Below are positions 19,125 to 42,847 of a stretch of DNA of 64,000 nucleotides, one piece after another. The translations under genes and the position numbers were made by a program. The DNA is from Candidatus Micrarchaeota archaeon (GTDB lineage Archaea > Micrarchaeota > Micrarchaeia > Anstonellales > Bilamarchaeaceae): contig JACRGB010000003.1 in NCBI GenBank assembly GCA_016212505.1, positions 27,561 to 91,560 of the forward strand, in the 5' to 3' direction. The notes under the pieces were generated by a model, which saw only the letters and a list, made by a program, of their open reading frames with translations, searched no databases and was not told the origin of the DNA. The stretch's first letter is position 1. Each line of letters begins with the position of its first letter.

Positions 19125-19132
19125 GAATTCGG

Positions 19133-19341: not shown

Positions 19342-19776
19342 TTAACCTGGTGCACTAAGTTCCACCTTACCGTTATTGTTCACCAGAGTAATTGGTAGAA
19401 GTCCGCTCTTTGCCTTAAGGTTCTGCTCGTAGTAGTTATTTTTATTATTACTAGAGATATTCGCGATCGTTGGGGAAACTGCCTCAAAATTACCTGACGA
19501 GGTTTTTATGGTGATAATGATTTCGCCACTTTTAGCCTGGAGAGATTCTGTGGACGAAGGAAGGTTCAGTACGACAACGCGCTTTGCACCATTTCCCTGC
19601 GCAAAAACAAAATCAGCGGCTTCAGCTAGAGAGCGGCTCGATGATTCTGCCTGGGCCTTGGCAGTATTCTCATAACCTACTGAATTTAGCGAGAATAAAA
19701 GGAACAGGACCGGCACGGTAAATGCTAGCACAATTGCGATTGTGACAAAAAGTTCCATTGAAGATTGGCCCTTCAT
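19342..19776 (-). CDS. Archaeal type IV pilin-like protein (class III signal peptide), candidate major subunit
   Basis: 144 aa starting MKGQSSMELFVTIAIVLAFTVPVLFLLF. The hairpin cluster follows it on the transcribed strand. Confidence 0.6.
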   Translation of the reverse strand: MKGQSSMELFVTIAIVLAFTVPVLFLLFSLNSVGYENTAKAQAESSSRSLAEAADFVFAQGNGAKRVVVLNLPSSTESLQAKSGEIIITIKTSSGNFEAVSPTIANISSNNKNNYYEQNLKAKSGLLPITLVNNNGKVELSAPG

Positions 19777-25301: not shown

Positions 25302-25877
25302 TTAATTTTTGGCCTTTTTAATTTTCTTCAGAAGAGCATGAAACTTTTCCGCATTAAGGTAGGTGCACCCGATCTCAGATGCAAATTTCAGCACCCCTTC
25401 ATCTGAAGAAATAAGTGTTGCATCAAGCTCTTTTGTAAGCAGGACCAATTCCACATCTTCCTTGGAATCTATTATTCCGGTGCGCATCGCATCACGGTAT
25501 TTTTCCCGGAGCTTCCCCAATTTTATATCATTATCCGGATGGTTATCTTTTGCAAATTCTTCAGCAAGGCGCATGCCCTTATTTATCCGGGTGCGGATAT
25601 CATCAATAAAATCATAAAGGACTGCTGCCGGAAGGTAAATCGAATACATATTAGGCGCGCGCTTCTTGATGTGTAGCTCGAGTTCATCAGTTGTTTTCTT
25701 TTCAATAAAATTTTTCATTTCGTTAAATACCGAAGGCGGGATAAAAAGCTCAATGTTCATTTTTGCGATTATCTTGAGGAATGCCTTAACTGCCGCAGTA
25801 GGACTCTTGCCAAAATGACCCCGGGCATGGGGATTGACAAACAAGGACGTATCGATAACAAAAACTCGGTTGGGCAT
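25302..25877 (-). CDS. PIN-like domain protein (putative nuclease)
   Basis: Probable start at the Met at 25877 (MPNRVFVIDTSLF...). An Asp near the N-terminus plus ...LISSDEGV are PIN-like acidic positions. The longer ORF to 26108 has an implausible hydrophobic leader. Confidence 0.5.
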   Translation of the reverse strand: MPNRVFVIDTSLFVNPHARGHFGKSPTAAVKAFLKIIAKMNIELFIPPSVFNEMKNFIEKKTTDELELHIKKRAPNMYSIYLPAAVLYDFIDDIRTRINKGMRLAEEFAKDNHPDNDIKLGKLREKYRDAMRTGIIDSKEDVELVLLTKELDATLISSDEGVLKFASEIGCTYLNAEKFHALLKKIKKAKN

Positions 25878-25960
25878 ATGTAATAGCATAAAAAGACGTG
25901 GAATAAAAAGGTTTGCTAGGGAAAAGATATTTGGACATAAAAACATAAGGAAGGAATCAA

Positions 25961-26500
25961 ATGAAAAAAGAAGAACGGGTAGTACGAGTTCAGATCCGAC
26001 CAACTGATTCCGAACAAAAACCAGCACTGGGAAAAAGAAGAGCTCCCATGAACAGCAGTGTAACGATAACGGCAACTGAAGTAATTGAGAGATTGAAAGC
26101 AACTGCAAGTGGCTGGGATCACATCGTAGCTAACATGATCGGACTTATCAGGTTAGAAAAAGAAGAAGTAAAACTTTTCGTAAAGGAAGGAGAAAAAACC
26201 AAAATTTATTCTCTCGATGATGATGATCAGATGTTTGGGATTCTTCAGGCGCTTTCACTGGGAAGCTCATTGCCAAAAAGCCTTCCAAAATTTGCAATTG
26301 CAGTTGTAGAAGAAACAACCAACATATATTTTGTATTGGTATCGATAAATGAGAGGAGAAAAATCATAGTAAAGGCACTACTTTCTAGTTACATGGATCG
26401 AAATGAGAGTGAGTGGAGAGAGGTATTTGTTGCAATAAGGGCAGCTGAGCAGGAGTATCTCATGCCAGGAAATAGGGGCAACCTTGTCATTTCAACTTAA
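25961..26500 (+). CDS. Hypothetical protein (convergent with giant gene; ends 15 bp from its stop)
   Basis: 179-aa ORF with a protein-like composition. No recognisable motifs. Confidence 0.4.
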   Translation: MKKEERVVRVQIRPTDSEQKPALGKRRAPMNSSVTITATEVIERLKATASGWDHIVANMIGLIRLEKEEVKLFVKEGEKTKIYSLDDDDQMFGILQALSLGSSLPKSLPKFAIAVVEETTNIYFVLVSINERRKIIVKALLSSYMDRNESEWREVFVAIRAAEQEYLMPGNRGNLVIST

Positions 26501-26515
26501 TAAAAATAGTTAAAA

Positions 26516-29500
26516 CTATCTAGATGCACGCAATGCTTTTTCCGCCATAGCTTGGGCATCAGGGAGAATATCAGCCCAGATATTTTGGAAACCGTCTTTG
26601 CCACCTATAGTAAGCAAGTGACTGAATATATCCGTTGCTTCAGGTGCATCAAACACGACACGACCATGCCGATCAGCCATAACATAATCACGCTGACCAT
26701 TTATCGGCATACCGACCATCACCTGCGGAGGGTCTCCCTTTTGGCCGCCCGCATAGTATGCTTCAATTTCTTTTATCGCAGTTGGGGAAAGTGATTGCCC
26801 AGCTCCAACCATCTGGCCATCATTTTTAGCAAAAGCAGTCACCAGGTTGCGTTCAAAATCAGGGGTACTCCCAACTTCAGTATGCCATTTTTTAGCCCCC
26901 TCTTTTATGGAATGGGTTGCTGATTGGGCCACTTCAGAAACGGGGCGGCCAGACAAACGCGCAAGGCTTATAAAAACTGGAGCTAAATCTTTTGAATATT
27001 GGGGGATTAGGTGTTCTTTGGAGGAATAAAGTTCATATCCCCCTCGTGTATTTTTAGTTACCCGAAAATGGCCTGCGGCATCAGTATCTATCCGCCCGAT
27101 TTTGAATATTGCAGACTCTCCCCTAACATCTACAACAGTATAACCTTCACTCTTAAGTAATGCAACCTTTGAAGGAGGCACTTTCAGCAACATACCCTGA
27201 AGGTTTCCAGAATGATTATCCCAGGAACCTCCCATCATGAGTCCAGTGCATGCATAACCAATTTCCTGATGAACTACCTCGGGATGTTCTTTATAAAATT
27301 TGGTTAATTCGGTATTGCCTTTCATTCTAGATAAACTAGCTGCTTCCATAGTTGAAGTTTGAATTGGTTCACCCCCAAGGTTGAGAGTACCGCTAAAGTA
27401 TTTGATATGGTCTATCAAACCCCATTTAACCGCCCCACCCTCCGGAGAGGAGAACGTAAGCGGTTTACTATTTGATTCGCTAACCACTCCGGCAGTTGGA
27501 ACATTTGCTATTTGCCCGGTTTTTGCCCCGAAAGCAGCAGGCCGTAAATCCTCGGCTTTTGCAATAAATGCTCGCTCTTCACCCGAAGGGGCAACTACTT
27601 TTATCTCGTACGCTCCAACCATACCATCATGGCCGATTATCCGAGTAATTTTACTGCCTTCTGGAACTTTGGCAAGGACAGTTTCAGAAAGATTACCGGA
27701 TAATAAAAGAGATCCGATTGTAGAAACCTGCTGATGATAGTTACCCGACCTAGGATCAAAAGAATGAGAGTAGAGTCCTTTTTTCTCTAAATAAGAGCTT
27801 ACATCAGCCACAGCCGCTTCATTGCTCTTTGCATTAAGATAGACATTTTTTAATTCACCTGAAGATAAGCCAAGTGCTTTCTCAGATGCAGGCACTCCCT
27901 TAAGGTTTTCCAAATAAGTTGCAGCCGAGTGTTCTCCGGCAAGAGTTAGAGTTCTGATGCTTTGTTCTTGTTGGGCAGGAGGAGCTGCTAAAAATGACTC
28001 TGCGGATTTTGTGCGTTCTGTGACGGCTGGGGATCTTAATGATGCTCCTAATTTCTGTGCCTCTGAACGCTCTGCGCCAGTGAGTTCGTGCTGCTGCGCA
28101 CGAGGTTCAGCTGGAGTTTCTAATGCCCGAGGCAATTCTTGCACCGGAACTGCACGTTCTTGAGCCGGAGAATGCCCCGTGGCTTTATTAAGTTCAACAA
28201 CCTTTGGCGCAGTCGTCAAGGAGGTGCGTTTCTTTATTTCACTATCAAGACCATTTGCAGCCTTTTCTAATGCAACTGCCAAAAGAGGATTTGTTTTTTG
28301 ACCGCTTTCTTTAGGGGGATTACGCCAGAACTTTGCTTCATCTCGCAAAGAGCCGGCACGCTCGGATAGCTCCCCAACTTCGATTTTAGGGTTATCAATC
28401 AAACGTTGGGTCTGGAGCTTTGCCGTAGCCTCAAGGGTCACGGAGTCATTCTGCAACTGGGGAATATGCCCTTCATATATGGCCAAACCCGCTTCGTTTA
28501 ATGCGAGATTAAATTCTTGGTTTTGCCTTGGAAGTCTTTCGGTTCCGGAAACGTGTTCCCGATAAGATCTGGCGAGATTGCCTGCAGCACGGGCAGTCCG
28601 TTCTGCTTCTCCCACACCCATGCCCGAATTGATCAAACGATCCTTAAGTTCGGAAAATGCACTTTTCTCTGCGAATTTATGTGCCTCTGCTGCGACCTGT
28701 TCTTGAGGAAGAGGTTTTGCGGATTGGTCAGAGGGATGCGCCAATTCGAATTCCGCAGCTCGCCTAACCGTTTCAAATTTTTCATTAATTGCTCTAGCGT
28801 GAACATCAAGTGCACTTGCAAGTTTTACCTGCTGCTCCCGCACAGGTATTGCTTCTGCGCCTTTTCCTAGGGTATAGACAGTACCTTCTGGAGAAACGGA
28901 ACTATCTGAAAATCGCGACCGAAATCTTGTTTCATTACGAGTAAATTCAAAGTTAGGAGTTTTGAATCCATCAAAAAGTGAGACGGGTTGGCTGCTGGTT
29001 TTTTCCTGAGCCACTAAAACATCCGCACTTTGACGCAATTGCTTTGCGTCAGCAGTAAGTTGTGCAGCCCGATCTTCGAGTACTTGCGCCCCTGCAGAAT
29101 CCCCCTGGCGGTTCAATCTTCGCATTTCTGTTAATGCGTCTGTTGCTTGGGCAGTAATATGATCTGCCTGAGCAAGCAATTGTTGCGAACTTGGAACTTC
29201 TGCTTGATGGGCCATAGGCCGTACTGGAGCTGCTGACCTATTCGTCCGTTCAACTGCCAAACGCCTGGAGATGGCTCTGGAAAAATTAATTCCAAATCGG
29301 CCAACTGCACCAACATCAATACCAGCATTTGCATAAACTGGGGTCCGGTCTACGGCCTCGACAAAAGCAGCCCCAAAAACTCTAGCCCCGAATTTTACTT
29401 TATCAAAACCCTTACTCGCTGCTGATTTAGTTTTGTCTTTAGCAATCCGTGCTGCTTCTCCGGCGGTTTCTGCAGCTACGGCCATTCTTCCAACAACCCG

Positions 29501-32137
29501 CTCAGGCATAGCAACTTGAACATTAGGCCCAGTAGTGACTTTTGGGGCAGATTTTCTAGAGTTAACCGTAATTTCTCCGGAAACAACATCTCCTGCATTA
29601 ACTCCTTGAGGCATCCGGCTAGCCATAGAGTTTGGAATTTTACTTTGAGGCAGTTTCAAGGTTGGAATTTCGAAAGTTGATCCGAAGGCAGCAGTGCGCA
29701 CTTTACTGGAAAAACCTTCAATAACAAATGAGCTGGTCCTCCTATAAGAGGATTTAGCCAGATTAAAAGCACTTTTACGTGAATGCCACAAGGGCAGTGC
29801 ATTATAGAGCAAATCAGCCCCGCCACTTGCCCAGTCACCTTGACGGATCTGACTATACGCGCTACCAACTCCTTCTACAGAAAAACCGAGATTGATACCC
29901 GTTTCTGCCACCCTAAATGCCACGCCGGCATGGCCTAAATTAAACGCATTTGCAGATCCTTTGAGAAGCGGGTTAAATCTAAGCCCAACTACGCTAGTGA
30001 TAAGCATGAGTTGGGTTTTCCACGAAACATCCCCGGTAAAGTATTGCTCCCGAGCAGCGCCCCGGAATGCACTTGCAACACCAAAAAATTGGCCGATAAC
30101 CGGAATAAATGCAACTAGCCTCTCGGCCCATTCATTCAACTTATCTGCAACGTGCATTTTATGTTTTAGTTCATCAAATCGGATTTGAAGCTCTTCCCCG
30201 GCCTGATCAGCAAGTGCCTGAGCACGGTAATTCTGCTTAACTCCGCTATAATATCCTATCAGCTTTTTTGATTGGGCAACAATGGCATCTTGGAGCTTGC
30301 CTTCACCAACTGCAAAAACACGGGAACTTGAGGTGCACACGGAAGCTTCAAAGCGGGCCATAACTTCTGCAAGTTTCTGGTTGTTTTTATCAAAACCCTT
30401 CCCTTCCAGATGTTGATCAAGCAAATGCAACGAAGCATCCATAAAAAATCCAAAATTATTTCTCACAGGATCTATTTTCCCGCTCCTATCAAGAAGGGCA
30501 GCTGCAGAAGCATTGTATTGTTCACCCATCGAACGGGTATCTATCCGAAGCATATTCATTGCAGCGGCCTTAGCCCTAACCGCATCCGTGAATGATCGCC
30601 TGACGGTTTCAGACATTCCTCCAGAAAGATAGGAACTTAGGGCAGCATCATAGGATTTTCTCATAGTGTCAAGACTTTCCATACCGCGAAATTCTTTGGT
30701 TTCTTTCCAGTCGCCCTGACGAACTGCCTCGTAATATCCTGAAGCATTCCTGGTTTCATTCATCAAAAAGATCCCGGTAGAGACAAAAGCAACGGCTTCG
30801 TTTCTGGATTTATAAAATTCTGCAATTTTAGCACTGGCTGCAGATAAATCAGAAAGTTTTCCGCTTTTTTTTGCTTTTTCTATTTCACCCTTAAGTTTTG
30901 CAGATTCTGCCTCTACAGATTCTAATCGTGCAATGAATTTTGGGATTTCATACCGAAATGAGTCTCCAAACTGTGAATGTACGAATTTCTTTAGTTCATC
31001 AGTACTGGCCAATTCGCCCAATTGTTTTTCCTGTGCATTTACATATTCGAGTTGTTTTTTTGTTATGAACTCATTGGTTTTTTTATCAAACTCAGGAAGT
31101 AGTTTGTTTACCTTAGCAACATCTCTTTTTTCTATAGCCAATTTCACTTCATCAAGGGATTTTTGAAGCTCGGGGATTTCGCCGTAACTGGCAGATAGTT
31201 GCATATATGCTTCTCTGCGTTGTTCCAGAACAGATTTCGTCGTAGGAATTTTGCCGTCCTTATCTTTCTTGCCAGGCTGTGGCTGCGTAAGGCTAATACA
31301 ATATTTTGCATCCTCAAATTTTTTCATGCCATGTGCAAATGCAGCTTCTGCATTCTGAATATCGCCCTTAAGGTGTAATGAAACTGCTTCTTTTAGGTCG
31401 TCTAGGCCGTCTGATTTTTTTATGCCCTTAATATTTAGGGCATCTTCGTAACTCATAAGGCGGTCAAGTGCAGCATCTGCTTGGGCAAAGATTTGGTGTG
31501 CTGATTGTGGATTTTTTTCTTCTGGTGCAGAATCATAAAGTTTTTTGATTTGTAATGCAGCACTTTTGATGAAGGGGTCAGATGAGGCCAGAAGTTTTGG
31601 AACAGTGGAACGAAAATCACCGAGTGCTTTTGACTGCTCTACTTCATTAACACGGGAATTCATCTGCCCGATAAGTGCCCCTGCAGCGCCTCTTAGACTA
31701 TCATCAACCTTGTTTTGTTTAAACTGTAAAAGTAAATAATCAGTTTGGGACTTAAACTGCTCAAAAAGATTTACAGAGTGATCAGCTGGATCGATTTTGG
31801 CTTTCCCTAAGTCATTCATACGGGTAAGCAACTCCGCAAGTGCAAGGCAAACCTGCCCATTTGCATAACTAACATCGGTTAGGCCTTCTTTTTGAGCGCG
31901 GACAAAAAAAGCATTAGCCCGTTTGCCGAGTTCACTTACGCGCACATCGTCAGATCTCGCATACCCTCTTGCAGAAGCCCTTAATGCGTCAGGAGCACTG
32001 TTCAGCTTAACATCTTGAATATCTTTAATGGCAGTCTCTTGTGCACGGGCAGCAACTGCACCTAATACGGGGGCAAGTGCACTAACTTGTCTTGTCGGGT
32101 CATTTTCCTGAGGGTTGTAGAAGTGGGGCATAGGCAT
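26516..32137 (-). CDS. Giant (1873 aa) signal-less, largely helical protein with a central hydrophobic hairpin, a Gly/Ala-rich region and a C-terminal PI3K/PI4K-like kinase catalytic core; candidate effector/toxin
   Basis: Uninterrupted 5.6-kb ORF. It appears GC-richer than its surroundings. There is no N-terminal signal peptide. The first ~670 residues are K/E/A/Q-rich and coiled-coil-like. Hydrophobic segments lie at residues ~673-693 (LVAFIPVIGQFFGVASAF) and ~708-720 (QLMLITSVVGL). Residues 725-960 are G/A/S-rich. Residues 1524-1691 carry FIAKAEDLRP (Lys motif), GSWDNHSGN (D-x-H-x-x-N catalytic loop) and IDTDAAGHF (DFG-like). The Lys-to-DxH spacing of ~115 aa matches PI3K spacing. Confidence 0.85.
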   Translation of the reverse strand: MPMPHFYNPQENDPTRQVSALAPVLGAVAARAQETAIKDIQDVKLNSAPDALRASARGYARSDDVRVSELGKRANAFFVRAQKEGLTDVSYANGQVCLALAELLTRMNDLGKAKIDPADHSVNLFEQFKSQTDYLLLQFKQNKVDDSLRGAAGALIGQMNSRVNEVEQSKALGDFRSTVPKLLASSDPFIKSAALQIKKLYDSAPEEKNPQSAHQIFAQADAALDRLMSYEDALNIKGIKKSDGLDDLKEAVSLHLKGDIQNAEAAFAHGMKKFEDAKYCISLTQPQPGKKDKDGKIPTTKSVLEQRREAYMQLSASYGEIPELQKSLDEVKLAIEKRDVAKVNKLLPEFDKKTNEFITKKQLEYVNAQEKQLGELASTDELKKFVHSQFGDSFRYEIPKFIARLESVEAESAKLKGEIEKAKKSGKLSDLSAASAKIAEFYKSRNEAVAFVSTGIFLMNETRNASGYYEAVRQGDWKETKEFRGMESLDTMRKSYDAALSSYLSGGMSETVRRSFTDAVRAKAAAMNMLRIDTRSMGEQYNASAAALLDRSGKIDPVRNNFGFFMDASLHLLDQHLEGKGFDKNNQKLAEVMARFEASVCTSSSRVFAVGEGKLQDAIVAQSKKLIGYYSGVKQNYRAQALADQAGEELQIRFDELKHKMHVADKLNEWAERLVAFIPVIGQFFGVASAFRGAAREQYFTGDVSWKTQLMLITSVVGLRFNPLLKGSANAFNLGHAGVAFRVAETGINLGFSVEGVGSAYSQIRQGDWASGGADLLYNALPLWHSRKSAFNLAKSSYRRTSSFVIEGFSSKVRTAAFGSTFEIPTLKLPQSKIPNSMASRMPQGVNAGDVVSGEITVNSRKSAPKVTTGPNVQVAMPERVVGRMAVAAETAGEAARIAKDKTKSAASKGFDKVKFGARVFGAAFVEAVDRTPVYANAGIDVGAVGRFGINFSRAISRRLAVERTNRSAAPVRPMAHQAEVPSSQQLLAQADHITAQATDALTEMRRLNRQGDSAGAQVLEDRAAQLTADAKQLRQSADVLVAQEKTSSQPVSLFDGFKTPNFEFTRNETRFRSRFSDSSVSPEGTVYTLGKGAEAIPVREQQVKLASALDVHARAINEKFETVRRAAEFELAHPSDQSAKPLPQEQVAAEAHKFAEKSAFSELKDRLINSGMGVGEAERTARAAGNLARSYREHVSGTERLPRQNQEFNLALNEAGLAIYEGHIPQLQNDSVTLEATAKLQTQRLIDNPKIEVGELSERAGSLRDEAKFWRNPPKESGQKTNPLLAVALEKAANGLDSEIKKRTSLTTAPKVVELNKATGHSPAQERAVPVQELPRALETPAEPRAQQHELTGAERSEAQKLGASLRSPAVTERTKSAESFLAAPPAQQEQSIRTLTLAGEHSAATYLENLKGVPASEKALGLSSGELKNVYLNAKSNEAAVADVSSYLEKKGLYSHSFDPRSGNYHQQVSTIGSLLLSGNLSETVLAKVPEGSKITRIIGHDGMVGAYEIKVVAPSGEERAFIAKAEDLRPAAFGAKTGQIANVPTAGVVSESNSKPLTFSSPEGGAVKWGLIDHIKYFSGTLNLGGEPIQTSTMEAASLSRMKGNTELTKFYKEHPEVVHQEIGYACTGLMMGGSWDNHSGNLQGMLLKVPPSKVALLKSEGYTVVDVRGESAIFKIGRIDTDAAGHFRVTKNTRGGYELYSSKEHLIPQYSKDLAPVFISLARLSGRPVSEVAQSATHSIKEGAKKWHTEVGSTPDFERNLVTAFAKNDGQMVGAGQSLSPTAIKEIEAYYAGGQKGDPPQVMVGMPINGQRDYVMADRHGRVVFDAPEATDIFSHLLTIGGKDGFQNIWADILPDAQAMAEKALRASR
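27000..27900 (-). other. PI3K/PI4K-like (atypical lipid/protein kinase) catalytic domain within the giant protein
   Basis: Codons 1524-1691 map to ~27065-27568. rc(27541-27580) encodes ERAFIAKAEDLRP. Motifs are described in the parent feature. Confidence 0.4.
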
Positions 32138-32495: not shown

Positions 32496-33596
32496 CTAGA
32501 TCAGTTTCACCAGTCCCCTTCCTATTTCCGGGATGTTTCCCCCAAATAAGTTCGCTGCGTTAAGGGTGAATGTCATAAATACCACCATTGCGATTAATGG
32601 GAAGAGGCAAATTGCTGAAAGCAGATGGAGGGCAAGATCCGAAAGATGGTAGGTCACCAATTCAGTAAGCTGGCCATAGTTTGCTCTTAATCGGACTACG
32701 GATTCGCTTAAGCTGCCGACGCTGGGGCTCTGGCAGGCATAAGTTGAAAGATCATCTGGAACAGATGGAAGCATGCAGTCGTATTTGAACGAGCTTTCAA
32801 GGGGCGCGGGATTTGGGTTTGCAACAAGCAGAGAGGTCTGCACATGGGGAAGCGACATAGTTGCCACTAGGATATAAGTAAGGGGAAATACGAAATATAT
32901 GCCTACTGAAATTGCCATCATAAATGCGCCGGCACCGCGCACTGGGGGAAAGGCACGGAGTGCAACCCCAACAGAAAAGAAGAAACCAGCATAATATTTG
33001 ATGAAGGTGAAGGTATGGACAATAAGATAATACATGTACATGTAAAATGACATTGATTTTGTTGCGGTTGCAATTCTTTCTGAAAGCCATTTTATACCAA
33101 ATCCCGAGGCCACTTCGGACATGAAAATTTCCATATAAACAGATGAAATGGCCTCCACAGGGATGCTGAGGCCATAAAGGACTTTCATAAAACCGCTAAC
33201 GCATCTTGCCGGGGTTTCCATATAAAGGATCATCCAGTCGATGAGCGTGTTTTGGCTAAATACCACGCCATTCCAGGGAAAATCGTTCGAGTTGAGCTGG
33301 AAGGTAGAAAGATAAAGTGACTTTGCAACAGAACTGTGGAGTCCTGGCAGGGGCGCTCCTTGGGCAAGCAGGGGTTCGCCAACCTGGGCAAGCGCGGCCA
33401 CCATAATCACAATAAGCACGGTGGATACTGCATAAACAAATTCCGTTTTCGCTGTCTGCTCGAGGTTACGTAGGGAAAAGAGCCGGGAAAACATAATCAG
33501 CATGGCAGCAACTACTACTGATAGTGATGCTGCGGCAACCGCAAGCAATTCCCAGCCTGCATAGAAAGACGAACAGAAAAAAGTTGTACAAACCAT
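32496..33596 (-). CDS. Polytopic membrane protein, paralog family member P1 (366 aa)
   Basis: Shares the N-terminal motif (SRLFSLRNLEQTAKTEF), the loop motif ALRAFPPVRGAGAFMMAISVGIYFVFP and the C-terminal ...GNIPEIGRGLVKLI with the five upstream paralogs. Confidence 0.7.
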   Translation of the reverse strand: MVCTTFFCSSFYAGWELLAVAAASLSVVVAAMLIMFSRLFSLRNLEQTAKTEFVYAVSTVLIVIMVAALAQVGEPLLAQGAPLPGLHSSVAKSLYLSTFQLNSNDFPWNGVVFSQNTLIDWMILYMETPARCVSGFMKVLYGLSIPVEAISSVYMEIFMSEVASGFGIKWLSERIATATKSMSFYMYMYYLIVHTFTFIKYYAGFFFSVGVALRAFPPVRGAGAFMMAISVGIYFVFPLTYILVATMSLPHVQTSLLVANPNPAPLESSFKYDCMLPSVPDDLSTYACQSPSVGSLSESVVRLRANYGQLTELVTYHLSDLALHLLSAICLFPLIAMVVFMTFTLNAANLFGGNIPEIGRGLVKLI

Positions 33597-34847
33597 CTAG
33601 ATCATCCTCGTTAATGAACTTATATCTACTTCTTCGCCGAAAATTGCGCTGAACCTCCTTGCAGCTTCAATAAACACAAGGACATTTAGGGCAGGGGCAA
33701 GAAACGCGAATAAAAATGCAAGTGCTACCACGGAAATTGGGATCATTATAATTATTGTAAATGTATCCCCAACAATGGACTGGAGGATGGAGCCAACTCC
33801 GCCATAAGTACCGCTTACAATGTCAGTAATGCCTCCATTGCCAAAACCTTTGGAGAAAAAATCGCTTGCATGCTTCATGAAACCGCCCGGGGTCAGGTCG
33901 CTAAAGAAATTGCGGAGGAAATCTGTCCAGTTAACTAAAGGATTCCCAAGACCGCTTAACATGACACTAAAGGTAAGGACGGTAAGGAGGGGAAATACAA
34001 GGAGGAATGCTGCGGAAATCCCAATCAGGGTCCCTCCAACCCTCCGGGTCGGGGTAAAGCAGCGGAGGAAAATACCTGCTGGCAGATAATAGTGAAGGAA
34101 TGCCTGTAATGAAAATAGGTAAACAAATAGCTGCGCATACATTATGATATATGCAACAGATAATGCAACCGACATATTATACAGCAGTTGTTTTATAGGG
34201 GAGAAAAATCCTGCAAAGGGAGTTGCTACAAGCCCAACGCCAAGAGGCCGGGCATAGGGAGTAACCGAAGCGAACTGGTCTACAATCACATTTAGCAGGT
34301 AGCTCATATCCAGCCAACTGCCGACATAGTATCCACCAAGTTCAAAAAATGCCCCTGCGACCTTATATACTGAATCTCCGGCCACAACACCAGTAAAACC
34401 AGAACCTAGTGGAGTTGCTTTTGGGAAAAAGTCTTCTGGAAGGGAGGATCCCATATCAATATTTGCAAGGACAGCAATTGAGCCCAAAATGATAACTGCA
34501 AGAAAACCGGAAATGACAAGTTCGAGAAGTTCCTGCTTTACGAAATTTATGACCATCTGGTTCCTTAGCAGGGTACCAAAAATATAAAATAATGCAAGAA
34601 GCACTGCTGAAACCATTAAAGCTAAACCCGATGGGGCAACCCAGTCCCACATGCCGGCAAACTGGGTGGAAACTATTGAATCAGCATCAAGCTTGAACAT
34701 TCCTGCAGTTCCCTGCGGGGGGGAGGGGTTTTGGAAAGGCGGGGCCTGCACACAGCCCGAGCTGATAAGAAATAGGAAAATGGCGGCGAGGAGGATGAAT
34801 ATTTTGGTTTTTTTGTTGCCGATCATACGCATAGTAAATCTCCCCAT
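33597..34847 (-). CDS. Polytopic membrane protein, paralog family member P2 (416 aa)
   Basis: Motifs GTLLRNQMVINFVKQELLEL and FLRCFTPTRRVGGTLIGISAAFLLVFP. C-terminus EEVDISSLTRMI. Abuts P1 with no gap. Confidence 0.7.
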   Translation of the reverse strand: MGRFTMRMIGNKKTKIFILLAAIFLFLISSGCVQAPPFQNPSPPQGTAGMFKLDADSIVSTQFAGMWDWVAPSGLALMVSAVLLALFYIFGTLLRNQMVINFVKQELLELVISGFLAVIILGSIAVLANIDMGSSLPEDFFPKATPLGSGFTGVVAGDSVYKVAGAFFELGGYYVGSWLDMSYLLNVIVDQFASVTPYARPLGVGLVATPFAGFFSPIKQLLYNMSVALSVAYIIMYAQLFVYLFSLQAFLHYYLPAGIFLRCFTPTRRVGGTLIGISAAFLLVFPLLTVLTFSVMLSGLGNPLVNWTDFLRNFFSDLTPGGFMKHASDFFSKGFGNGGITDIVSGTYGGVGSILQSIVGDTFTIIIMIPISVVALAFLFAFLAPALNVLVFIEAARRFSAIFGEEVDISSLTRMI

Positions 34848-36110
34848 TCATATAAGTTTTAAGAACCCAAAGAAATTAACATTAACTCCGAAGAACTTTG
34901 CAGTTTCCTTTGCTGCAGTAAGGGTAACGAAAATATTAAAGAACGGCAGCAGTACGGCCATCATGACGATATAGTATACGGACCCCCGCACAAGCTCAAA
35001 GGCCAGTGAAACTATCCCTCCCATGAAGAATGGCACCAGCACGCCGCTCGTAAGCAGCATTGAAATAACCGCAGTCCCAAAGACATTGAAGATCCCGCTG
35101 TTGGTAATGAAGCTGTTTATTGCTTTTTGGGCATCGATGATATTTCCACGCATTAGCTTGTGGACCTCATAGTCAATCAGGAACATGAACGGGTAAACGA
35201 GCGCGAGCGAAAATGCAATTGCGATCAAGGCTTCGCCTGCATTCCGCGTAAAAGGTATTGCACGAAGAAGGATGCCTAGCGGAATGAATAAGCTCCATGT
35301 CCACTTTTTGATTATGCATAGGGTGACAAGGTGGAGCAGCCATTCGCTAATGCCAAGGGAAAGGAACTGCAACGACGTACCGATAACATCAATAAGGGGC
35401 TTGAGTATGGGACCCATGTTAAACGAATACATTGCACGCCAGGTAACGCCAAACCACATTGTAGATGAATAGATCGTATGGACTACGGTGTTGTAAAGAA
35501 GGAGCATGCTGTAGTCGGTTGACATTTCGGTTATCATAACCCGGGTGAACTGTAGCGCGGCATCCATCATATTTGAATTGAAACGTGGATTGCCATAAAT
35601 AGGGTCGGCACTTGCATTCCCTGCACTAAATGAAAACCATAGCCCGCCCATGCCAATTGCCACAAGGATGACCATCACCCTGCGGATGGTGATTGTGGTC
35701 TGGTAAAGCTCATCTTTTGCAAGTGCGATTAATGAGGGCGAACTGAGAAGCTGGCCGAGCATATAAAATGCAGCGATTCCAAAAAAAACTACAAAAAGTG
35801 CAAGAATTGTAGGTGCAATCCAAAGTACATTTACAGTATCAGGAGAAATTGCAGGATTCGGGTTGGGGTTTTGGACTGAGAGGAAAGGATCATCGCAAGA
35901 GCTTCCCTTAAGGGTGTCAAAGAGGCTGTTGATGCCTACTGCGGCAGCTCCGGCGGGTGCCACTGCAGTATTTTTTATGTCATCCCAGCCCTTGTTCATA
36001 TTGTCGACGAATTTTTGGAATGCAGTGCTCCCAGCATTTTGGTCTGGCGGGTCGGCAAATAGGATGGAGGTGGAGAAGATCAGGATCAGGAATATGGGTA
36101 GCACCTTCAT
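34848..36110 (-). CDS. Polytopic membrane protein, paralog family member P3 (420 aa), signal peptide
   Basis: Starts MKVLPIFLILIFSTSILFA. Motifs GQLLSSPSLIALAKDELYQT and LLRAIPFTRNAGEALIAIAFSLALVYP. C-terminus VNVNFFGFLKLI. Abuts P2. Confidence 0.7.
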   Translation of the reverse strand: MKVLPIFLILIFSTSILFADPPDQNAGSTAFQKFVDNMNKGWDDIKNTAVAPAGAAAVGINSLFDTLKGSSCDDPFLSVQNPNPNPAISPDTVNVLWIAPTILALFVVFFGIAAFYMLGQLLSSPSLIALAKDELYQTTITIRRVMVILVAIGMGGLWFSFSAGNASADPIYGNPRFNSNMMDAALQFTRVMITEMSTDYSMLLLYNTVVHTIYSSTMWFGVTWRAMYSFNMGPILKPLIDVIGTSLQFLSLGISEWLLHLVTLCIIKKWTWSLFIPLGILLRAIPFTRNAGEALIAIAFSLALVYPFMFLIDYEVHKLMRGNIIDAQKAINSFITNSGIFNVFGTAVISMLLTSGVLVPFFMGGIVSLAFELVRGSVYYIVMMAVLLPFFNIFVTLTAAKETAKFFGVNVNFFGFLKLI

Positions 36111-36111
36111 A

Positions 36112-37611
36112 TCAAATCAGCCTCGTAAGTCCTGCTATTTCTATATCCCCGCCAAAGGTCATGGAAAGCGAACGTATTGCGGCAATAGTGGAAATTATTG
36201 CAAGCAATGAAAAGAACATTGACCAGAAACTAAGCCTTGCAAGGATATCGAGCGGGCCATTTGGTTCCCAGGAAAAATTAATCCAGCTATCTTGCTTGCT
36301 CGCTTGGGAGAGTTGGCCGAACCAGCTATCCCGGTCGGTAGGATCGAACGCTTTTTCTGCCGCGGCAAGCGCTTTCTGCTGTTCTGCAACTACTGCCGGA
36401 TCCTTGCTGGCAGGATCATCACCTGGGCCTGCATTGAATCTGGGAATTAACTTATTGGTGGCTGGATCATTTTTTTCGATAGTTTCAAGATAGGCCAAAT
36501 CATAGGGATTGACCCCTTCCTTGGCAACACCCGAATACCCTTGTATATTTGCAAGAGTCTGCTGAGCACCCCGGGTGTCGAGCTTATTGCCCCCTCCTAT
36601 TACAGGTACAAAACCCAGTATATACATGGTGTTTGCAATTGGAGGGTCGGGATTGAGTTTGCCAAGAGGATTGGCTTTTACATTTAGGGGAGAAACCCAA
36701 TCATCACGGACATTATCCTTGAGCTGGATCATTACCAGCCCGGCAAAAGCATAGAAGGTCGGATAGATGAAATAGAGGGCAATTGCAATTGCAAGCATAA
36801 GGCCACCAAGGCGCCGGGTAAATGTGAATGTACGCAGAAGGGTCCCGGCAACAAAGAACGAAGGGAATATGGCAAGTGCGATAAAGCGCAGGAAAATTTC
36901 CTGCATCTTAGTGATCATAAGGATTTTCATGGCCCATTCAAATGCCAGAGATTTGACATTATTGCCCATTGTGAAGAATCCCCTCCAGGGGTTGAATGTG
37001 ATGAACCCGGTTTTTTCAAAAATAGTTTCAAAGTTTATAGTAAATTCTGCGGCCATAGAAGTCCAGATATAGTCGATATAGGTATTGAATGCAAAAGTAC
37101 TAGTTTCATCAAACACTTCCCGCAGGTGCCAGATGCCCATACGTACAGAACAGGAGGAAATGCCATTGTAAACAGAATATTGGTTTTCAGCAATATCGTC
37201 CCCGCATATGTCTATACACGCATAGTCACGTATGCCATTGTTTACCAGCGGGATCTGACCTGCACGAAATTGTTGGACGTAAGTTGTAGTTGCAGTAGTT
37301 GCGCCAGGGCAGAGGGTCCCAGGAGAAGGTTGGGGATTATTTCCGATACCCTGGTGCGGCATCAGGAGAATAGCCCCATGCACAACACCATCAACAAGCG
37401 GAAGGCTGGTTATTGCAAAAGAAAGGATTATCGCTGAATAAAATAATTCTGCTAGTTCCATTTTGGCCCATGCCTTTATTTTATCGTTCATGAGCATGCT
37501 GCCGATCATATACACTCCGCCAATTAGGCAAGTAACTATTCCGAATGCAATTCCGGCAAAAGCGAGCCAGTCGCCCCAGAACAATTTTATAGTTGTAAAT
37601 ACATCGACCAT
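36112..37611 (-). CDS. Polytopic membrane protein, paralog family member P4 (499 aa)
   Basis: Motifs GSMLMNDKIKAWAKMELAEL and LLRTFTFTRRLGGLMLAIAIALYFIYP. C-terminus GDIEIAGLTRLI. Confidence 0.7.
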   Translation of the reverse strand: MVDVFTTIKLFWGDWLAFAGIAFGIVTCLIGGVYMIGSMLMNDKIKAWAKMELAELFYSAIILSFAITSLPLVDGVVHGAILLMPHQGIGNNPQPSPGTLCPGATTATTTYVQQFRAGQIPLVNNGIRDYACIDICGDDIAENQYSVYNGISSCSVRMGIWHLREVFDETSTFAFNTYIDYIWTSMAAEFTINFETIFEKTGFITFNPWRGFFTMGNNVKSLAFEWAMKILMITKMQEIFLRFIALAIFPSFFVAGTLLRTFTFTRRLGGLMLAIAIALYFIYPTFYAFAGLVMIQLKDNVRDDWVSPLNVKANPLGKLNPDPPIANTMYILGFVPVIGGGNKLDTRGAQQTLANIQGYSGVAKEGVNPYDLAYLETIEKNDPATNKLIPRFNAGPGDDPASKDPAVVAEQQKALAAAEKAFDPTDRDSWFGQLSQASKQDSWINFSWEPNGPLDILARLSFWSMFFSLLAIISTIAAIRSLSMTFGGDIEIAGLTRLI

Positions 37612-37652
37612 ATTGCATCCTCAGAGGTTTACTCATAAATTCTTCAAAATAC

Positions 37653-39416
37653 CTACATTTTCATCAGTATAAATTTCGTCATCGCATTTATGAATGCTAT
37701 AGTGACCATAATTGAGAGTGCGGGCATAAATAATGATAGAAGGGTAAGTACCGCAAAGTGCCGCATGATTATTGTAAATTCCGGCATGGGCAGGAGCCCC
37801 AGTACCCCTTCTGAGAAAAAATTACCCAGTGACTTTTGCACCGCAGTCCCTTTGGGAAGGTATTCGAATATTTTCCCCGGTGCAGTAGCGGGATTAAAGA
37901 AATAGCCAAATGCACCGTATTTTACCGGCCCGCATATTGAGTAAATTAAGGTGTTGGGGCTTTGGTATCCCGAAGGCCCAAGGTCCTCATACGCTTTCTT
38001 ATCGATCAGATAACCCATCGGAAAAACAATTTGGAAGCCTAATGCAAATGCCATAAGGAATGCACCTGCATCGCGGGTGGGCGGGAAAAAGTGCAGGATA
38101 AGCCCCGCAGGGAGGAAAAAATTACCCATAGTAGAATCTATGAAATAGAGAAGGCTGATTTGCGCAGATAAGCTGCCATAAACAGCTACGAGCCCATAGG
38201 AAAGGACATTGGAAATAGAAACAAAAGTATCGATTCCAGGAAAAACCTTATAGGTACGGGTAAGCACGGATTCTCCGATCCTTCTTGCATAAACGCTGAG
38301 CATGGAAGTGCAGGACTGTATCGAGTAAACATCATATATGCCGTTTAGTACTGGATCAAGTGCCTTCTCTTGCAGGAAATTTATTGCGGCAAGGGAAGGC
38401 GAGTTGGTATGGTAAGCATCATTTGCCCAAGCTGAAACGATCTGGCTGCCTACAACGAAAAGTCCTGCCACAAAGAGGACAAGAAGGAATGAGCGGAAAA
38501 GGTTGGAAAGTTCGACATTGAGGTAGCCCTCCCATTCAGGAACCCGGAAAACTTTTGAAACTATATAAGTCAGGAAAATTATCAGGGAAACAAAAAAGAA
38601 TACGTTGATCATCAGGTCAGCGTAGGGAGAAATGGATGCGGCAGTGCCTATTTTTGTCTGAAGTATCGAATCAAATGCGCCACCTTTAGCTAAAAAGACC
38701 TTGAATACGACGAAATAGACTATTGCTACAATAAAAGTACTTGCAAGGAGATTATTCGCAAATCCGGTTGCCCTGGCCCGGGTTTCTGCGCCAAACATCA
38801 TCCCGGCAGCATAGAAAACCGCTGCAAGAATAGCAAAGACGATTGTCAGGAATGCAAGTGAATTTTCGGATATGGTTTTTAGGTCGCTGAAGATTTTTAA
38901 GAAATCGACGGATGATGGCTCGCCACCGGCATTAAGGCTGGGCTGGATGATCGAGAGGAGGAAGAACATTATGATTATTACTAACGCCGAAACACCAACC
39001 GCAGTAAGCATGCTTTCAGTCCAGGTAGATGCTTTTGCTCTTAAGTCTGCACCAAACATCTGGCCAATAACATAAACTGAAGCCGCTATTACGATCATGG
39101 TGATTAGGAGAATCCCCATGACAGAAAGGGCAAAGGGAAGTAGGGAATTAGGGGAACTGTTAAGGGCGGATAAGGGATCAATTGGTGGATTGGCGGCAAA
39201 TGAAAATGAGGGCAGGAGTAGCGATAGAAATAGCACAAGCAGGAAGAGCGAGAAAGGAGTTTTTATGTTTTTTATTATATTGGAATTTGCAAATTCCAAT
39301 GCGTGGAGAAATTCTTTGGAATTTCTCCTGTAGCGAACCGTGTTCGCTACGGACAAATTTTTGCGAAAATTTGTCCTTGTAGTCTTCGTGAAGTCCATTA
39401 ATAGCACCCTTTTCAT
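37653..39416 (-). CDS. Polytopic membrane protein, paralog family member P5 (587 aa; 5' end doubtful)
   Basis: Motifs GQMFGADLRAKASTWTESML and LILHFFPPTRDAGAFLMAFALGFQIVFP. Lacks the GLTR-type C-terminal tail. Its first ~45 codons are made of four tandem DNA palindromes (see repeat feature). Confidence 0.65.
   Translation of the reverse strand: MKRVLLMDFTKTTRTNFRKNLSVANTVRYRRNSKEFLHALEFANSNIIKNIKTPFSLFLLVLFLSLLLPSFSFAANPPIDPLSALNSSPNSLLPFALSVMGILLITMIVIAASVYVIGQMFGADLRAKASTWTESMLTAVGVSALVIIIMFFLLSIIQPSLNAGGEPSSVDFLKIFSDLKTISENSLAFLTIVFAILAAVFYAAGMMFGAETRARATGFANNLLASTFIVAIVYFVVFKVFLAKGGAFDSILQTKIGTAASISPYADLMINVFFFVSLIIFLTYIVSKVFRVPEWEGYLNVELSNLFRSFLLVLFVAGLFVVGSQIVSAWANDAYHTNSPSLAAINFLQEKALDPVLNGIYDVYSIQSCTSMLSVYARRIGESVLTRTYKVFPGIDTFVSISNVLSYGLVAVYGSLSAQISLLYFIDSTMGNFFLPAGLILHFFPPTRDAGAFLMAFALGFQIVFPMGYLIDKKAYEDLGPSGYQSPNTLIYSICGPVKYGAFGYFFNPATAPGKIFEYLPKGTAVQKSLGNFFSEGVLGLLPMPEFTIIMRHFAVLTLLSLFMPALSIMVTIAFINAMTKFILMKM
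39280..39376. repeat. Four tandem perfect palindromes at the P6/P5 junction, two of them the same motifs found upstream of dnaG
   Basis: TTGGAATTT-gc-AAATTCCAA (39280-39299); GGAGAAATTC-tttg-GAATTTCTCC (39305-39328); TAGCGAAC-cgt-GTTCGCTA (39331-39349); GGACAAATTT-ttgcga-AAATTTGTCC (39351-39376). Confidence 0.55.
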
Positions 39417-40690
39417 ACCACTTTTGTTAAACCGACCAATTCAGCTTCACCGCCAATTAGCATAGAAATGCTGCGGTACATTGTCACGGTGATTATTATT
39501 TCCAGGACAGTGGTGAGTATCACAAGCACAATAAATGGTGAAATGGTCCCAACTTCGTTCAATATGAAGTAATAGAGCCCGGCTGAAGAACTCGTAGGAA
39601 GGAAAGTTGATTTGGACCCAAAGAGGCTGGGGTAAAAATCGCCGGTTGTGCCTACCATAAAGAGCCAGATATTTCTTACAGTTGCAGCCAAAGATCCTCC
39701 TGTATTCCAGGCTGCACGAGCCATATTTTTGAGACTGCAAAGCAGACCAGTAACCCCATCACATCCGAGAGTTGGGGTTTTTGTTGCATCTGCAAGCTTG
39801 TCTGCTTCTTGAAATTCCTTGGTGATCGCATCGGTCCTACTCCCCTCCCTCCATTCAGTTATGAGTTTGGTCCAATAACCCTCATCATGATGAGTTGCAA
39901 GGTAAGATGGAGTTTGCGGGGTGTAAACAAAATCCGCTGGTTTGTACATGGAAAAAATCAGATAATGTGAAAAAATTGTGGCAAAGGGAAGGACAAAATA
40001 CATTGCAAAACAAATTGCGAGGATGCTTGAACCTGTGGTCCGGTAAAAGGGAAATGCACGGAGGATGAGGCCAAAGGGAAGGATAATTAATGGGATTGCG
40101 TCTTTAGTGAAAATGAGTATAAATTCCTTGGCCATTAAAACAGTAACAAGATAACTGATAGTCTCTACGATTATGGTGTGGGCATCACTAAGAAGGGTTA
40201 GTCCGGTAAATGGTGCAAATGAAAATGAGATAATGGCTACTGAGGGTATGGGCGAGCTGACCGGGAAACTGACTGTGGAAAGGAAACCTATCAGGGCTTC
40301 AAAAAGATAAAGGTCAATATACTGGGAGAAAAGCTTTTCTTTTAGGATAGTTAACACGCCAAGGGCAAGGTTGATATGTGCAGAGGTATAAACCTGATTT
40401 GGGTTTGCATTATTTATTACCCCACCAAGCCCTGAAGTACTTGATTGCAGCGCACCCTGGACCAGGGCATTTAAGGTGGTATCGAGGCTAAGCCAAAAGA
40501 AAATGATTACTGCAGAAAAAATTAAAGCAGCCAGTTCTTCCTTTGCAATAGCAGTAATTGAAGGGCTTTGTAAAAAATAAGCCACAAGAAATATTGAGCC
40601 GGTTAACCCCGTGGCAAAACCAAGGGAAACAAATATCATAGACCAGGCTGCTGGCGGTAAAGTTATTGCCAATAGCAGGGGAAGTAGCAT
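39413..40690 (-). CDS. Polytopic membrane protein, paralog family member P6 (425 aa), first gene of the locus
   Basis: Motifs AYFLQSPSITAIAKEELAAL and LILRAFPFYRTTGSSILAICFAMYFVLP. C-terminus GGEAELVGLTKVV. Confidence 0.7.
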   Translation of the reverse strand: MLLPLLLAITLPPAAWSMIFVSLGFATGLTGSIFLVAYFLQSPSITAIAKEELAALIFSAVIIFFWLSLDTTLNALVQGALQSSTSGLGGVINNANPNQVYTSAHINLALGVLTILKEKLFSQYIDLYLFEALIGFLSTVSFPVSSPIPSVAIISFSFAPFTGLTLLSDAHTIIVETISYLVTVLMAKEFILIFTKDAIPLIILPFGLILRAFPFYRTTGSSILAICFAMYFVLPFATIFSHYLIFSMYKPADFVYTPQTPSYLATHHDEGYWTKLITEWREGSRTDAITKEFQEADKLADATKTPTLGCDGVTGLLCSLKNMARAAWNTGGSLAATVRNIWLFMVGTTGDFYPSLFGSKSTFLPTSSSAGLYYFILNEVGTISPFIVLVILTTVLEIIITVTMYRSISMLIGGEAELVGLTKVV

Positions 40691-40741
40691 AAATAAACTA
40701 CTTCAGCACTTTTTATAAAAGCACCTGATATTATTCTATTT

Positions 40742-42106: not shown

Positions 42107-42502
42107 TCAATAGTTTTCCGCAGTAATTCCAGGAATCCTTGAAAAATGCTTTACATTTTCAGTTATTATAACGTTTTCTCCATTGGTTAATGCAATTGCG
42201 GCAATTAGAGCATCAGTTTCATTCACATCTTGGCCTTTTTGTTTAAGTTCTGCAGAGATACGCGCAGCACCATCGGTGCTTGTGGCATCTAATTCAAGTA
42301 TGGTTATTGAATCAAGAAAAGCATAAAAAATTTTAAGTTCTTTCTCTTTTACATCGGATTTTTGAAAATATATTCCAACTAGCACTTCAAAAACATTTAT
42401 TCTCGTAGTAAAAACATCTGAAGAAAGTGTTTTTACCTTACGTAGTGCGCTTTGCTTATTTTTTAAAAAATGAATAATGAAGGTCGTATCAAGAACTACC
42501 AT
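42107..42502 (-). CDS. vapC: PIN-domain toxin VapC
   Basis: 131 aa. MVVLDTTFIIHFL plus C-terminal acidic residues. Overlaps the upstream small gene. Confidence 0.8.
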   Translation of the reverse strand: MVVLDTTFIIHFLKNKQSALRKVKTLSSDVFTTRINVFEVLVGIYFQKSDVKEKELKIFYAFLDSITILELDATSTDGAARISAELKQKGQDVNETDALIAAIALTNGENVIITENVKHFSRIPGITAENY

Positions 42503-42732
42503 TTTAGAGGCACCTTTCTCCAGTTTTTCCTTACTTTCTTTACTACGGTTTCCATTTCTTTTGTCTCTTTTTCAGACATAAAGCTCCATGAGCCTGCAAA
42601 GTCCATAAAGTTTTTTTTACTCTTTTGCGGATGTATGAACTTGTGGATCACCTTACTATAACTTTCGCCAGGCCTTTTAAGGGTGGTAAGTTCCTTGTAA
42701 ACTGCATCAGAAATCATTATTGCATGGGCCAT
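42496..42732 (-). CDS. Putative VapB-type antitoxin
   Basis: ~78 aa if started at the Met at 42732 (MAHAIMISDAVYKELTTLKRPGESYSKVIHKFI...). Overlaps the vapC start by 7 nt. Confidence 0.5.
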   Translation of the reverse strand: MAHAIMISDAVYKELTTLKRPGESYSKVIHKFIHPQKSKKNFMDFAGSWSFMSEKETKEMETVVKKVRKNWRKVPLKW

Positions 42733-42847
42733 CAAGTCACCTATATATACATAGTATATATACATTTAAAATAGTTTCGAAAACAGGAGAACTACTAAAT
42801 TTAGGAGAGATAGAAGTAGATTAATGCTATAAATTAATGAAGCAAAA

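Follow-up and report, generated by a model that had tools for sequence, protein, structure and literature searches.

The question raised by this locus is why the first codons of P5, a gene for a membrane protein, should be built from four adjoining palindromes. P5 lies in a 64,000-nucleotide stretch of the genome of a Candidatus Micrarchaeota archaeon (contig JACRGB010000003.1, positions 27,561 to 91,560; the whole of this stretch is called the window below). The palindromes are probably, if not securely, an array of dispersed palindromic elements that was inserted into the first codons of P5, resembling either the repetitive extragenic palindromes and bacterial interspersed mosaic elements (REP/BIME) or the double-hairpin elements of mitochondria. 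They are best read as a double-hairpin family newly seen in DPANN archaea, with Candidatus Micrarchaeota as the host.

A preliminary description, made from the letters of the window, had reported four tandem perfect palindromes at this place. They are confirmed at 39279-39376, with stems slightly longer than it stated (11, 10, 9 and 11 bp), and its placing of them within the 5' end of P5 is literally right, as they occupy codons 14-46 of the longest P5 open reading frame. The host genes lie on the minus strand, and the parts of the locus, in gene orientation, are as follows.

39413-40690, minus strand: P6, with its stop codon TGA at 39413-39415.
37653-39416, minus strand: P5, longest open reading frame; its ATG (39414-39416) overlaps the P6 stop as ATGA.
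39400-39407, minus strand: upstream copy of the exact 8-nt direct repeat GTGCTATT, a candidate target-site duplication.
39237-39399, minus strand: insert of 163 nt relative to the reconstructed ancestral gene, comprising 23 nt on the 5' side, the four hairpins and 42 nt on the 3' side.
39351-39376, minus strand: hairpin 1, type B, first of the array, GGACAAATTTT-CGCA-AAAATTTGTCC (plus strand GGACAAATTTT-TGCG-AAAATTTGTCC); 11 bp stem, 4-nt loop, a member of the GGACAAAWTT family.
39330-39350, minus strand: extra hairpin, type C, GTAGCGAAC-ACG-GTTCGCTAC (plus strand GTAGCGAAC-CGT-GTTCGCTAC); 9 bp stem, 3-nt loop.
39305-39328, minus strand: extra hairpin, type E, GGAGAAATTC-CAAA-GAATTTCTCC (plus strand GGAGAAATTC-TTTG-GAATTTCTCC); 10 bp stem, 4-nt loop.
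39279-39300, minus strand: hairpin 2, type A, ATTGGAATTTGCAAATTCCAAT (plus strand ATTGGAATTTG / CAAATTCCAAT); 11 bp with no loop, or 9 bp with a 4-nt loop.
39264-39266, minus strand: ATA, a candidate alternative start 12 nt past hairpin 2.
39229-39236, minus strand: downstream copy of GTGCTATT, again exact.

A unit of the family is an oriented string composed of hairpin 1 (GGACAAAWTT, a loop, AAWTTTGTCC), the dinucleotide GC, hairpin 2, ACAA and an A-rich run. On the minus strand the P5 array reads ACAA, type B, type C, the nucleotide A, type E, AC, GC, hairpin 2 and ATAATAAAAAAC; the conserved GC (39301-39302) thus stands before hairpin 2, and ATAATAAAAAAC after it is a variant of the ACAA and A-rich tail. 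The array is a single double-hairpin unit in which the extra types C and E are nested after hairpin 1 and before the GC spacer. The stem core of type C (AGCGAAC/GTTCGCT) is that of a hairpin at 19161-19177 in the leader of a pilin-like gene, and type E was unique among the sequences compared.

Either strand of a 106-nt stretch covering the array folds into exactly the four hairpins. The minus-strand RNA fold reaches -45.5 kcal/mol (z = -10.6) and the plus-strand DNA fold a z of -11.3, and none of 200 shuffles did as well in either case. Over the whole window, eight perfect hairpins with stems of at least 10 bp were observed, against 0.8 expected from dinucleotide shuffles. These 64 kb hold about 15 hairpins and four arrays (14519-14569, 19133-19282, 39279-39376 and 60799-60847). 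An independent Logan assembly of SRR12113407 was 100% identical over 11.3 kb and terminated within the P5 array, which indicates that the sequence is real and that it assembles like a repeat or palindrome. Several contigs (L131, L169, L176, L183 and L220 from metagenomes, L001 from Logan) stop no more than a few tens of bases from a hairpin unit, and it appears that the units often break short-read assemblies of Micrarchaeota. The labels L001 to L251, here and below, refer to the comparison contigs or loci, drawn from genome, metagenome and Logan sources.

That the array was inserted, as one proposal of the preliminary description had it, is borne out by the relatives of P5. The NCBI entry with the identical protein (HY988_00780, Candidatus Micrarchaeota) annotates the array stretch as coding, yet the extra stretch of about 50 residues is covered by none of the 106 other homologues. 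Nearly all of the 107 homologues are 505-530 aa long and begin with MK[RK] and a short hydrophobic signal ending in FA, so that the N-terminal 50 residues are not conserved at the protein level. Three other Micrarchaeota genomes (L245, L246 and L247) keep the gene order, with a divergent AspRS gene followed by P6, P5 and four more paralogues. Their P5 signal peptides are 15-17 aa long, only 2-3 nt separate the P6 stop from the P5 ATG, and there are no hairpins at this junction, nor any hairpin array in the 8-21 kb compared. Outside the insert P5 is conserved, with 66% identity to P0002 and 66% to the P5 of L245. The palindromic motifs also recur elsewhere in the window and across Micrarchaeota.

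The insert encodes ..NGLHED../LMDFTK...TPFSLFLL in the P5 frame, and together with one copy of GTGCTATT it amounts to 171 nt, equal to 57 codons and free of stops. Deleting the 171 nt between the two copies restores MKRVLFLSLLLPSFSFA|ANPP, a signal peptide of 17 aa, the same length as in the closest orthologue. The comparison shows the 163-nt segment, flanked by the 8-nt repeat, to be a lineage-specific insertion after codon 6 of a 17-codon signal peptide.

The preliminary description had also suggested that the real start of P5 lies downstream of the hairpins, and this is not favoured. The ancestral start (GTATGA) survives, with its ATGA stop/start overlap, and the conserved MKRVLLM aligns with MKRILML and MKKVII of orthologues; the exact multiple of three and the lack of stops in the insert point the same way. 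P5 would most likely still start at the ancestral ATG, and the element would be carried as a basic 57-residue extension of the n-region of the signal peptide, to be removed upon secretion. Four of the six reading frames of the array are nearly free of stops, so the open frame is weak evidence of translation. A new start could be served by the ATA 12 nt after the last hairpin, which would give ATA AAA ACT.. and (M)KTPFSLFLL; two other loci (L142 and L224) have ATG codons at the same spacing after their units.

Beyond P5, the window holds the double-hairpin unit at two further places, three copies in all. The preliminary description had noticed that two motifs of the P5 array also stand upstream of dnaG; these are real, and a third copy of the GGACAAATTT hairpin, at 60826-60847, had been overlooked. 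The pattern of this hairpin matched three times in the window and in none of 100 shuffles.

14519-14569, plus strand: complete double-hairpin unit in the spacer between a small Toprim-like gene and dnaG, consisting of type B, GA, an A-type hairpin 2 and ACGATAAAAAAA; the hairpins read GGACAAAATTT-CAT-AAATTTTGTCC, then ATTGGAATTT-ATAC-AAATTCCAAT.
60799-60847, minus strand: complete double-hairpin unit in reverse orientation, 17 nt past the lysS stop, consisting of B-GAAA, GC, ATGGTAAATT-ATCA-AATTTACCAT and ACAAAAACAAAA.

The spacer that holds the dnaG unit is 158 nt long. No spacer is present in L250 and L251, whose Toprim-like gene and dnaG overlap (ATGGCTAA), and the unit of the window looks like an insertion that split a formerly overlapping gene pair, as far as the arrangement of the orthologues suggests. 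Empty orthologous sites are thus available for two junctions, P6/P5 (L245, L246 and L247) and Toprim-dnaG (L250 and L251).

When one genome per GTDB species was scanned with the pattern GACAAAWTT-N3-8-AAWTTTGTC, at least 120 loci matched, mostly chance palindromes. Among the matches listed, seven were from Micrarchaeota (six metagenome-assembled genomes of 42-60% GC), and only these seven were accompanied by a second conserved hairpin, at a spacing of 2 nt in five; in L010 the partner hairpin was in reverse orientation, and in L102 it came with inserted hairpins. About 50 more units of this grammar, tandems and nested hairpins among them, came from a scan of metagenomes, and more than 40 units have the full form of hairpin 1, GC, hairpin 2 and ACAA. 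The loops of hairpin 1 include CAGA, CGCA, CGAT and GCAA. Hairpin 2 has two to five variable closing pairs, a core G[GT]AAAT, a loop and ATTT[AC]C, as in ATTGGAAT-ATAGAA-ATTCCAAT or AyyGTAAATT-ATCA-AATTTACrrT. Units occur singly, in head-to-tail tandems with other types of hairpin 1 (such as TGAAAAACTTC-CAGA-GAAGTTTTTCA and GGACAAAGTCTG-CGGA-CAGACTTTGTCC), or with additional hairpins that nest in a loop or separate hairpin 1 from GC (L033 2619-2790, L102, L149 and L194). No description of such hairpin or palindromic repeats in Micrarchaeota or DPANN was found in the searchable literature.

The two arms of each stem change together. In hairpin 1, at the positions that the search pattern left free, the arms were complementary in 56 of 56 copies at pair 8 (A-T or T-A) and in 44 of 44 at the inner pair. 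The MAFFT alignment of the units was structurally inconsistent in hairpin 2, so its pairs were counted by script and not with a covariance model. Its 33 distinct sequences gave 328 Watson-Crick pairs out of 336, with three to four pair types and no mismatch at each of the closing positions, and G·T pairs numbered only three out of 336. Single-mismatch hairpins near units comprised three G·T against two A·C, too few mismatches to tell RNA from DNA or the strand that folds. Wobble so close to zero is atypical of RNA helices, which tolerate it. The pattern would fit palindromes that must pair on both strands, or arms that are copied or corrected from each other.

Units stand between genes in both orientations. 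Some are co-oriented with a downstream start (the dnaG unit of the window, L133, L202, L157, L188 and L242), and others face the 3' end of a gene that converges on them (the lysS unit of the window, L080, L150, L224, L241 and L244), as do about half of the interpretable units. In L177 the unit stands between imperfect 16-nt copies of the upstream gene's end.

A different two-hairpin insertion was seen at the dnaG start codon of another Micrarchaeota metagenome-assembled genome (L249, 5234-5290, reverse strand). An imperfect 16-nt duplication on either side of it takes in the start codon (GGTGAAATTTTATGGC / GGTGATTTTTTATGGC); in its second hairpin one arm is native sequence, and a GGTG Shine-Dalgarno motif lies in the loop just before the dnaG ATG. 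The native arm and the duplicated start region together suggest that this palindrome may have formed in situ, through fold-back copying. In the window, a lone 8-bp hairpin at 14073-14091 (AGAGAAAC-AAG-GTTTCTCT) precedes the GTG start of the small Toprim-like gene by 22 nt, and its stem resembles the pilin-leader hairpin type AGAGAAC/GTTCTCT of L250.

A second array inside a coding region concerns the N-terminal leader of a pilin-like gene of the DUF7266 family, with three orthologous loci.

19133-19282, minus strand: array of about six to seven hairpins in the leader of the DUF7266 gene (open reading frame 18681-19355, minus strand, annotated as 224 aa).
L249, 2796-2975: orthologous leader hairpins.
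L250, 3486-3635: orthologous leader hairpins.
L251, 6001-6165: orthologous leader hairpins.

The DUF7266 orthologues share a class III-type motif, RG|QVAxEF, followed by a hydrophobic helix. Ahead of it are one to three tandem copies of a leader module, GQVAxE-xTxFxA-xNLR, and in many orthologues the module occurs once or twice more upstream. Two hairpins, which covary between genomes, encode each module. In L249, L250 and L251 the hairpins sit at the same positions of the leader, with compensatory changes that alter the peptide, as the following stem arms and peptides illustrate.

AGCGAAC and GTTCGCT: ERTPFA.
AGGGAAC and GTTCCCT: EGTSFP.
AGAAAAC and GTTTTCT: EKTSFS.
AGCGGCC and GGCCGCT: ERPSAA.

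Double changes affected eight of 16 pairs, one-sided changes none, and the few mismatches of these hairpins are A·C on the sense strand. The copy in the window has two hairpins more than the orthologous loci. Going by these comparisons, the pilin-leader array is probably older than the P5 array; both lie in leaders that are predicted to be cleaved off the mature protein. The repeated RGQ sites of the DUF7266 leader may allow release of small peptides by prepilin peptidase. An 8-bp hairpin at 18770-18791 (ATTGCCCA-AGCTCC-TGGGCAAT, in the minus-strand gene 18681-19124) encodes IAQELGQ and coincides with a short insertion relative to most orthologues, in a variable region that precedes a conserved Cys of the protein's C-terminal part; two more hairpins of 7-8 bp lie at 18786-18820.

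If the hairpins are dispersed elements, they would behave as palindromes at the level of DNA, with both strands foldable, stems of Watson-Crick pairs only and arms that change together. The units would be spread or copied through some trans-acting or repair-associated process, and whatever part they might play in mRNA stability, processing or insulation would come second.

Several observations weigh against this explanation. Pfam scans of about 40 window proteins gave no transposase, HUH, Y1 or RAYT (REP-associated tyrosine transposase) domain, and clustering of 610 open reading frames within 1.5 kb of units gave no recurrent family and no related insertion sequence. Flanking direct repeats over 29 units scored 5.9, against 6.0 in controls, and the 8-mer match at P5, taken alone, has no significance against controls. 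Translation through the insert is a prediction, and four of the six frames are nearly free of stops anyway. The near-constant sequence of the units at 42-60% GC exceeds what is typical of selfish REPs or miniature inverted-repeat transposable elements (MITEs), and suggests a conserved binding partner or function. Lastly, four genomes have the pilin-leader hairpins at orthologous positions, their stems preserved by compensatory changes, which looks like selection for function and not parasitism.

A general target-site duplication was rejected, as there was no signal above controls in the 29 units. The repeats of 8 nt at P5 and of 16 nt in L177 and L249 are for this reason anecdotal and do not define a target-site duplication. 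A viral origin was also rejected: the hairpin 1 pattern had three matches in IMG/VR, none of them with a partner hairpin.

Among known repeat systems, the closest likenesses are to four kinds of dispersed palindromic mini-element, those of mitochondria, REP/BIME of bacteria, those of Rickettsia and those of cyanobacteria. Double-hairpin elements are known from the mitochondria of Allomyces, other fungi and sponges. Like these, and like the mitochondrial repetitive hairpin-forming elements (RHE; PMC2800124), the Micrarchaeota units comprise one or two adjoining stem-loops, lie mainly between genes and occasionally within coding (or rRNA) genes, are patchy among relatives, have empty sites and encode no transposase. 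More than 40 of them have the two adjacent conserved stem-loops per unit, and the P6/P5 and Toprim-dnaG junctions show the empty sites and patchiness that indicate mobility. Unlike the mitochondrial elements, they reside in an archaeal chromosome, keep a near-constant sequence at 42-60% GC, and have A/T-rich stems with a short G/C clamp, a GC spacer, an ACAA tail and ordered tandems.

REP/BIME are palindromic units of 20-40 nt, present in many copies per genome in intergenic and intra-operon clusters, that form hairpins in single-stranded DNA or mRNA. REPs are imperfect palindromes, usually species-specific, that begin with 5' GTAG and are accompanied by a RAYT gene (TnpA-REP, an IS200/IS605-like Y1 transposase). 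The Micrarchaeota hairpins share with them the short, repeated and clustered palindromes (the four arrays of the window, recurring on many contigs), but their stems are perfect, the unit begins with GGAC, one copy lies in a coding region, and type C of the P5 array alone begins with GTAG (and ends with CTAC). No Y1/HUH gene was found among the window proteins scanned, and no recurrent family near the units.

MITEs have terminal inverted repeats that bound an internal sequence, a target-site duplication of fixed length and a related autonomous insertion sequence, whereas the Micrarchaeota units are stem-loops (loops of 0-8 nt) for which neither a general flanking duplication nor a related insertion sequence was found. 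Rickettsia palindromic elements (RPE) are reportedly in-frame insertions in protein genes, of about 100-150 bp with long imperfect stems. The P5 insert is similar in being in frame within an otherwise intact open reading frame and in adding a peptide segment (57 codons with the repeat, and no stop), but it consists of four independent perfect hairpins of 21-26 nt and affects a cleavable signal peptide, not the mature protein. Small dispersed repeats of cyanobacteria are said to be hairpins of about 21-27 nt that insert beside or inside each other, as deduced from orthologous regions. Mini-hairpins nest in Micrarchaeota too, and their insertion was likewise deduced from orthologous regions; the sequences are unrelated and the host belongs to another domain. 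We know of no oriented composite of two hairpins with conserved spacer and tail among the cyanobacterial repeats.

The pilin-leader conservation, the strongest sign that some hairpins at least are not mere parasites, keeps alive two other explanations, to each of which a rather low probability is assigned. One, put forward tentatively, is that the hairpins form a signal system specific to the phylum, a sequence-defined vocabulary (GGACAAATTT, G[GT]AAAT, CGAAC and others) read on DNA or RNA by conserved machinery whose purpose could be RNA processing, the handling of chromosomes, or the uptake of DNA or its exchange with the host. It would explain both the near-identical units at 42-60% GC and the compensatory hairpins in pilin-like coding leaders.

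The other, equally tentative, is that the hairpins are not selfish but selected cis-acting structures of polycistronic mRNA, acting as stabilisers, processing sites or modulators of translation that uncouple P5 from P6. The P5 and dnaG arrays are indeed oriented like their operons, several units lie 10-30 nt upstream of start codons, the L249 hairpin displays its GGTG Shine-Dalgarno motif in the loop, and the pilin-leader hairpins hold their positions with double compensatory changes in half of the pairs in spite of the amino-acid cost. An RNA role is at odds with the units that lie antisense to the sole adjacent transcript (60799-60847 at lysS, L080, L150, L224, L241 and L244), with the near absence of G·U among hairpin 2 pairs and near-unit mismatches alike, and with the pilin-leader hairpins, which have no one-sided changes and whose mismatches are A·C on the sense strand. 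Close relatives also lack the array at P6/P5. Only the 5S rRNA of the window reached an Rfam gathering score, and the units match none of the curated covariance models by which a structured RNA is recognised. An independent small-RNA gene, or an H/ACA-like RNA suggested by the ACA after hairpin 2, was considered and rejected, as there was no pseudouridylation pocket, consistent upstream promoter or Rfam match.

That a unit is a portable promoter or terminator, with hairpin 2 as a BRE/TATA-like element (BRE, transcription factor B recognition element) and the reversed T-rich tail as an archaeal oligo-T terminator, is improbable. The loops and arms of hairpin 2 are A/T-rich, an ATG, with or without a Shine-Dalgarno motif, often follows ACAA by 10-30 nt, and the reversed unit places TTATTTTGTTTTTGT directly after the lysS stop codon, where a contribution of the T-run to termination is possible, judged by position. 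Where window genes have a spacer upstream, most show a strong TATA box, TTTATAAA or TTTAAATA, centred about 27 nt before the ATG (for example 40691-40741 and upstream of 45098, 49753 and 58114), a spacing that implies predominantly leaderless mRNAs. Hairpin 2 has no such box and its geometry is unfit, and dnaG retains a TATA-like box and a Shine-Dalgarno motif of its own downstream of the unit, which makes a promoter role unlikely. Furthermore, about half of the interpretable units face a convergent 3' end, and binding of TBP/TFB leaves the stem covariation unexplained. A canonical promoter was rejected after comparison with the upstream regions of about 50 window genes, none of which matched a unit.

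It is less probable still that the palindromes are operators of one or more dimeric regulators, with a regulon that includes dnaG, P5 and the neighbours of lysS. The preliminary description had entertained a genome-wide regulator binding site, and perfect dyads, conserved half-sites (GGACAAA, TTGGAA/GTAAAT), variable centres and intergenic placement would suit it. Half-sites contacted independently by a protein should evolve independently, and the positions that vary between copies are without exception complementary across the arms in hairpin 1 and almost always so in hairpin 2, which makes such sites unlikely and the claim disfavoured. Nor do operators account for up to seven different palindromes packed head to tail with others nested in loops, for unrelated flanking genes in either orientation, or for the orthologous junctions of relatives that have no palindromes.

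Ordinary coding sequence, palindromic by chance or through misassembly, has practically negligible probability in spite of the open frame and the NCBI annotation, given a fold z of about -11 that no shuffle matched, a stretch absent from the 106 other homologues, and the same sequence in the independent Logan assembly with the same hairpins in unrelated samples and assemblers.

Other features of the window may be mentioned briefly. P5 and P6 belong to an operon at 32496-40690 (minus strand) of six paralogous polytopic membrane proteins of 366-587 aa, without Pfam match and with a conserved C-terminal motif GG[DE]xExxGLT[KR]; its synteny with the divergent AspRS gene is kept across Micrarchaeota, and the 51-nt spacer between P6 and AspRS contains a single shared palindromic TTTTATAAAA. 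On the same strand, 26516-32137 encodes a 1873-aa protein without Pfam domains. Archaeal housekeeping functions are represented by MCM, a class I aminoacyl-tRNA synthetase (Ile/Leu/Val type), archaeal DnaG, class I LysRS, AspRS and DnaK/DnaJ/GrpE. A stand-alone 5S rRNA gene lies at 57946-58060 (minus strand; Rfam 67.6 bits), with no adjacent 16S or 23S in the window. Genes for toxin-type nucleases occur at 42107-42765 (a PIN/VapB-like pair), 9435-9857 (a second PIN), 17807-18139 (HepT) and 25302-26108 (PIN_5).

The genomes of DPANN archaea are tiny and tightly packed, and are thought to be poor in repetitive or mobile DNA. A conserved family of 21-26 nt hairpins that spreads between genes and splits overlapping gene pairs changes this picture. 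By settling in frame inside cleavable leaders, the hairpins would leave the mature protein untouched, if cleavage occurs as predicted, and such leaders would be a previously unnoticed safe harbour for insertions. The arrays also have practical consequences, since they inflate annotated N-termini (proteins of 581 and 224 aa in GenBank) and break short-read assemblies. Watson-Crick covariation without wobble raises the question of how the two arms stay identical, which may be through arm-to-arm correction, fold-back synthesis or a structure-specific protein, and the near-invariant sequence across the phylum offers a handle for finding the factor responsible, with the bait oligonucleotide GGACAAATTTC-CAGA-GAAATTTGTCC.

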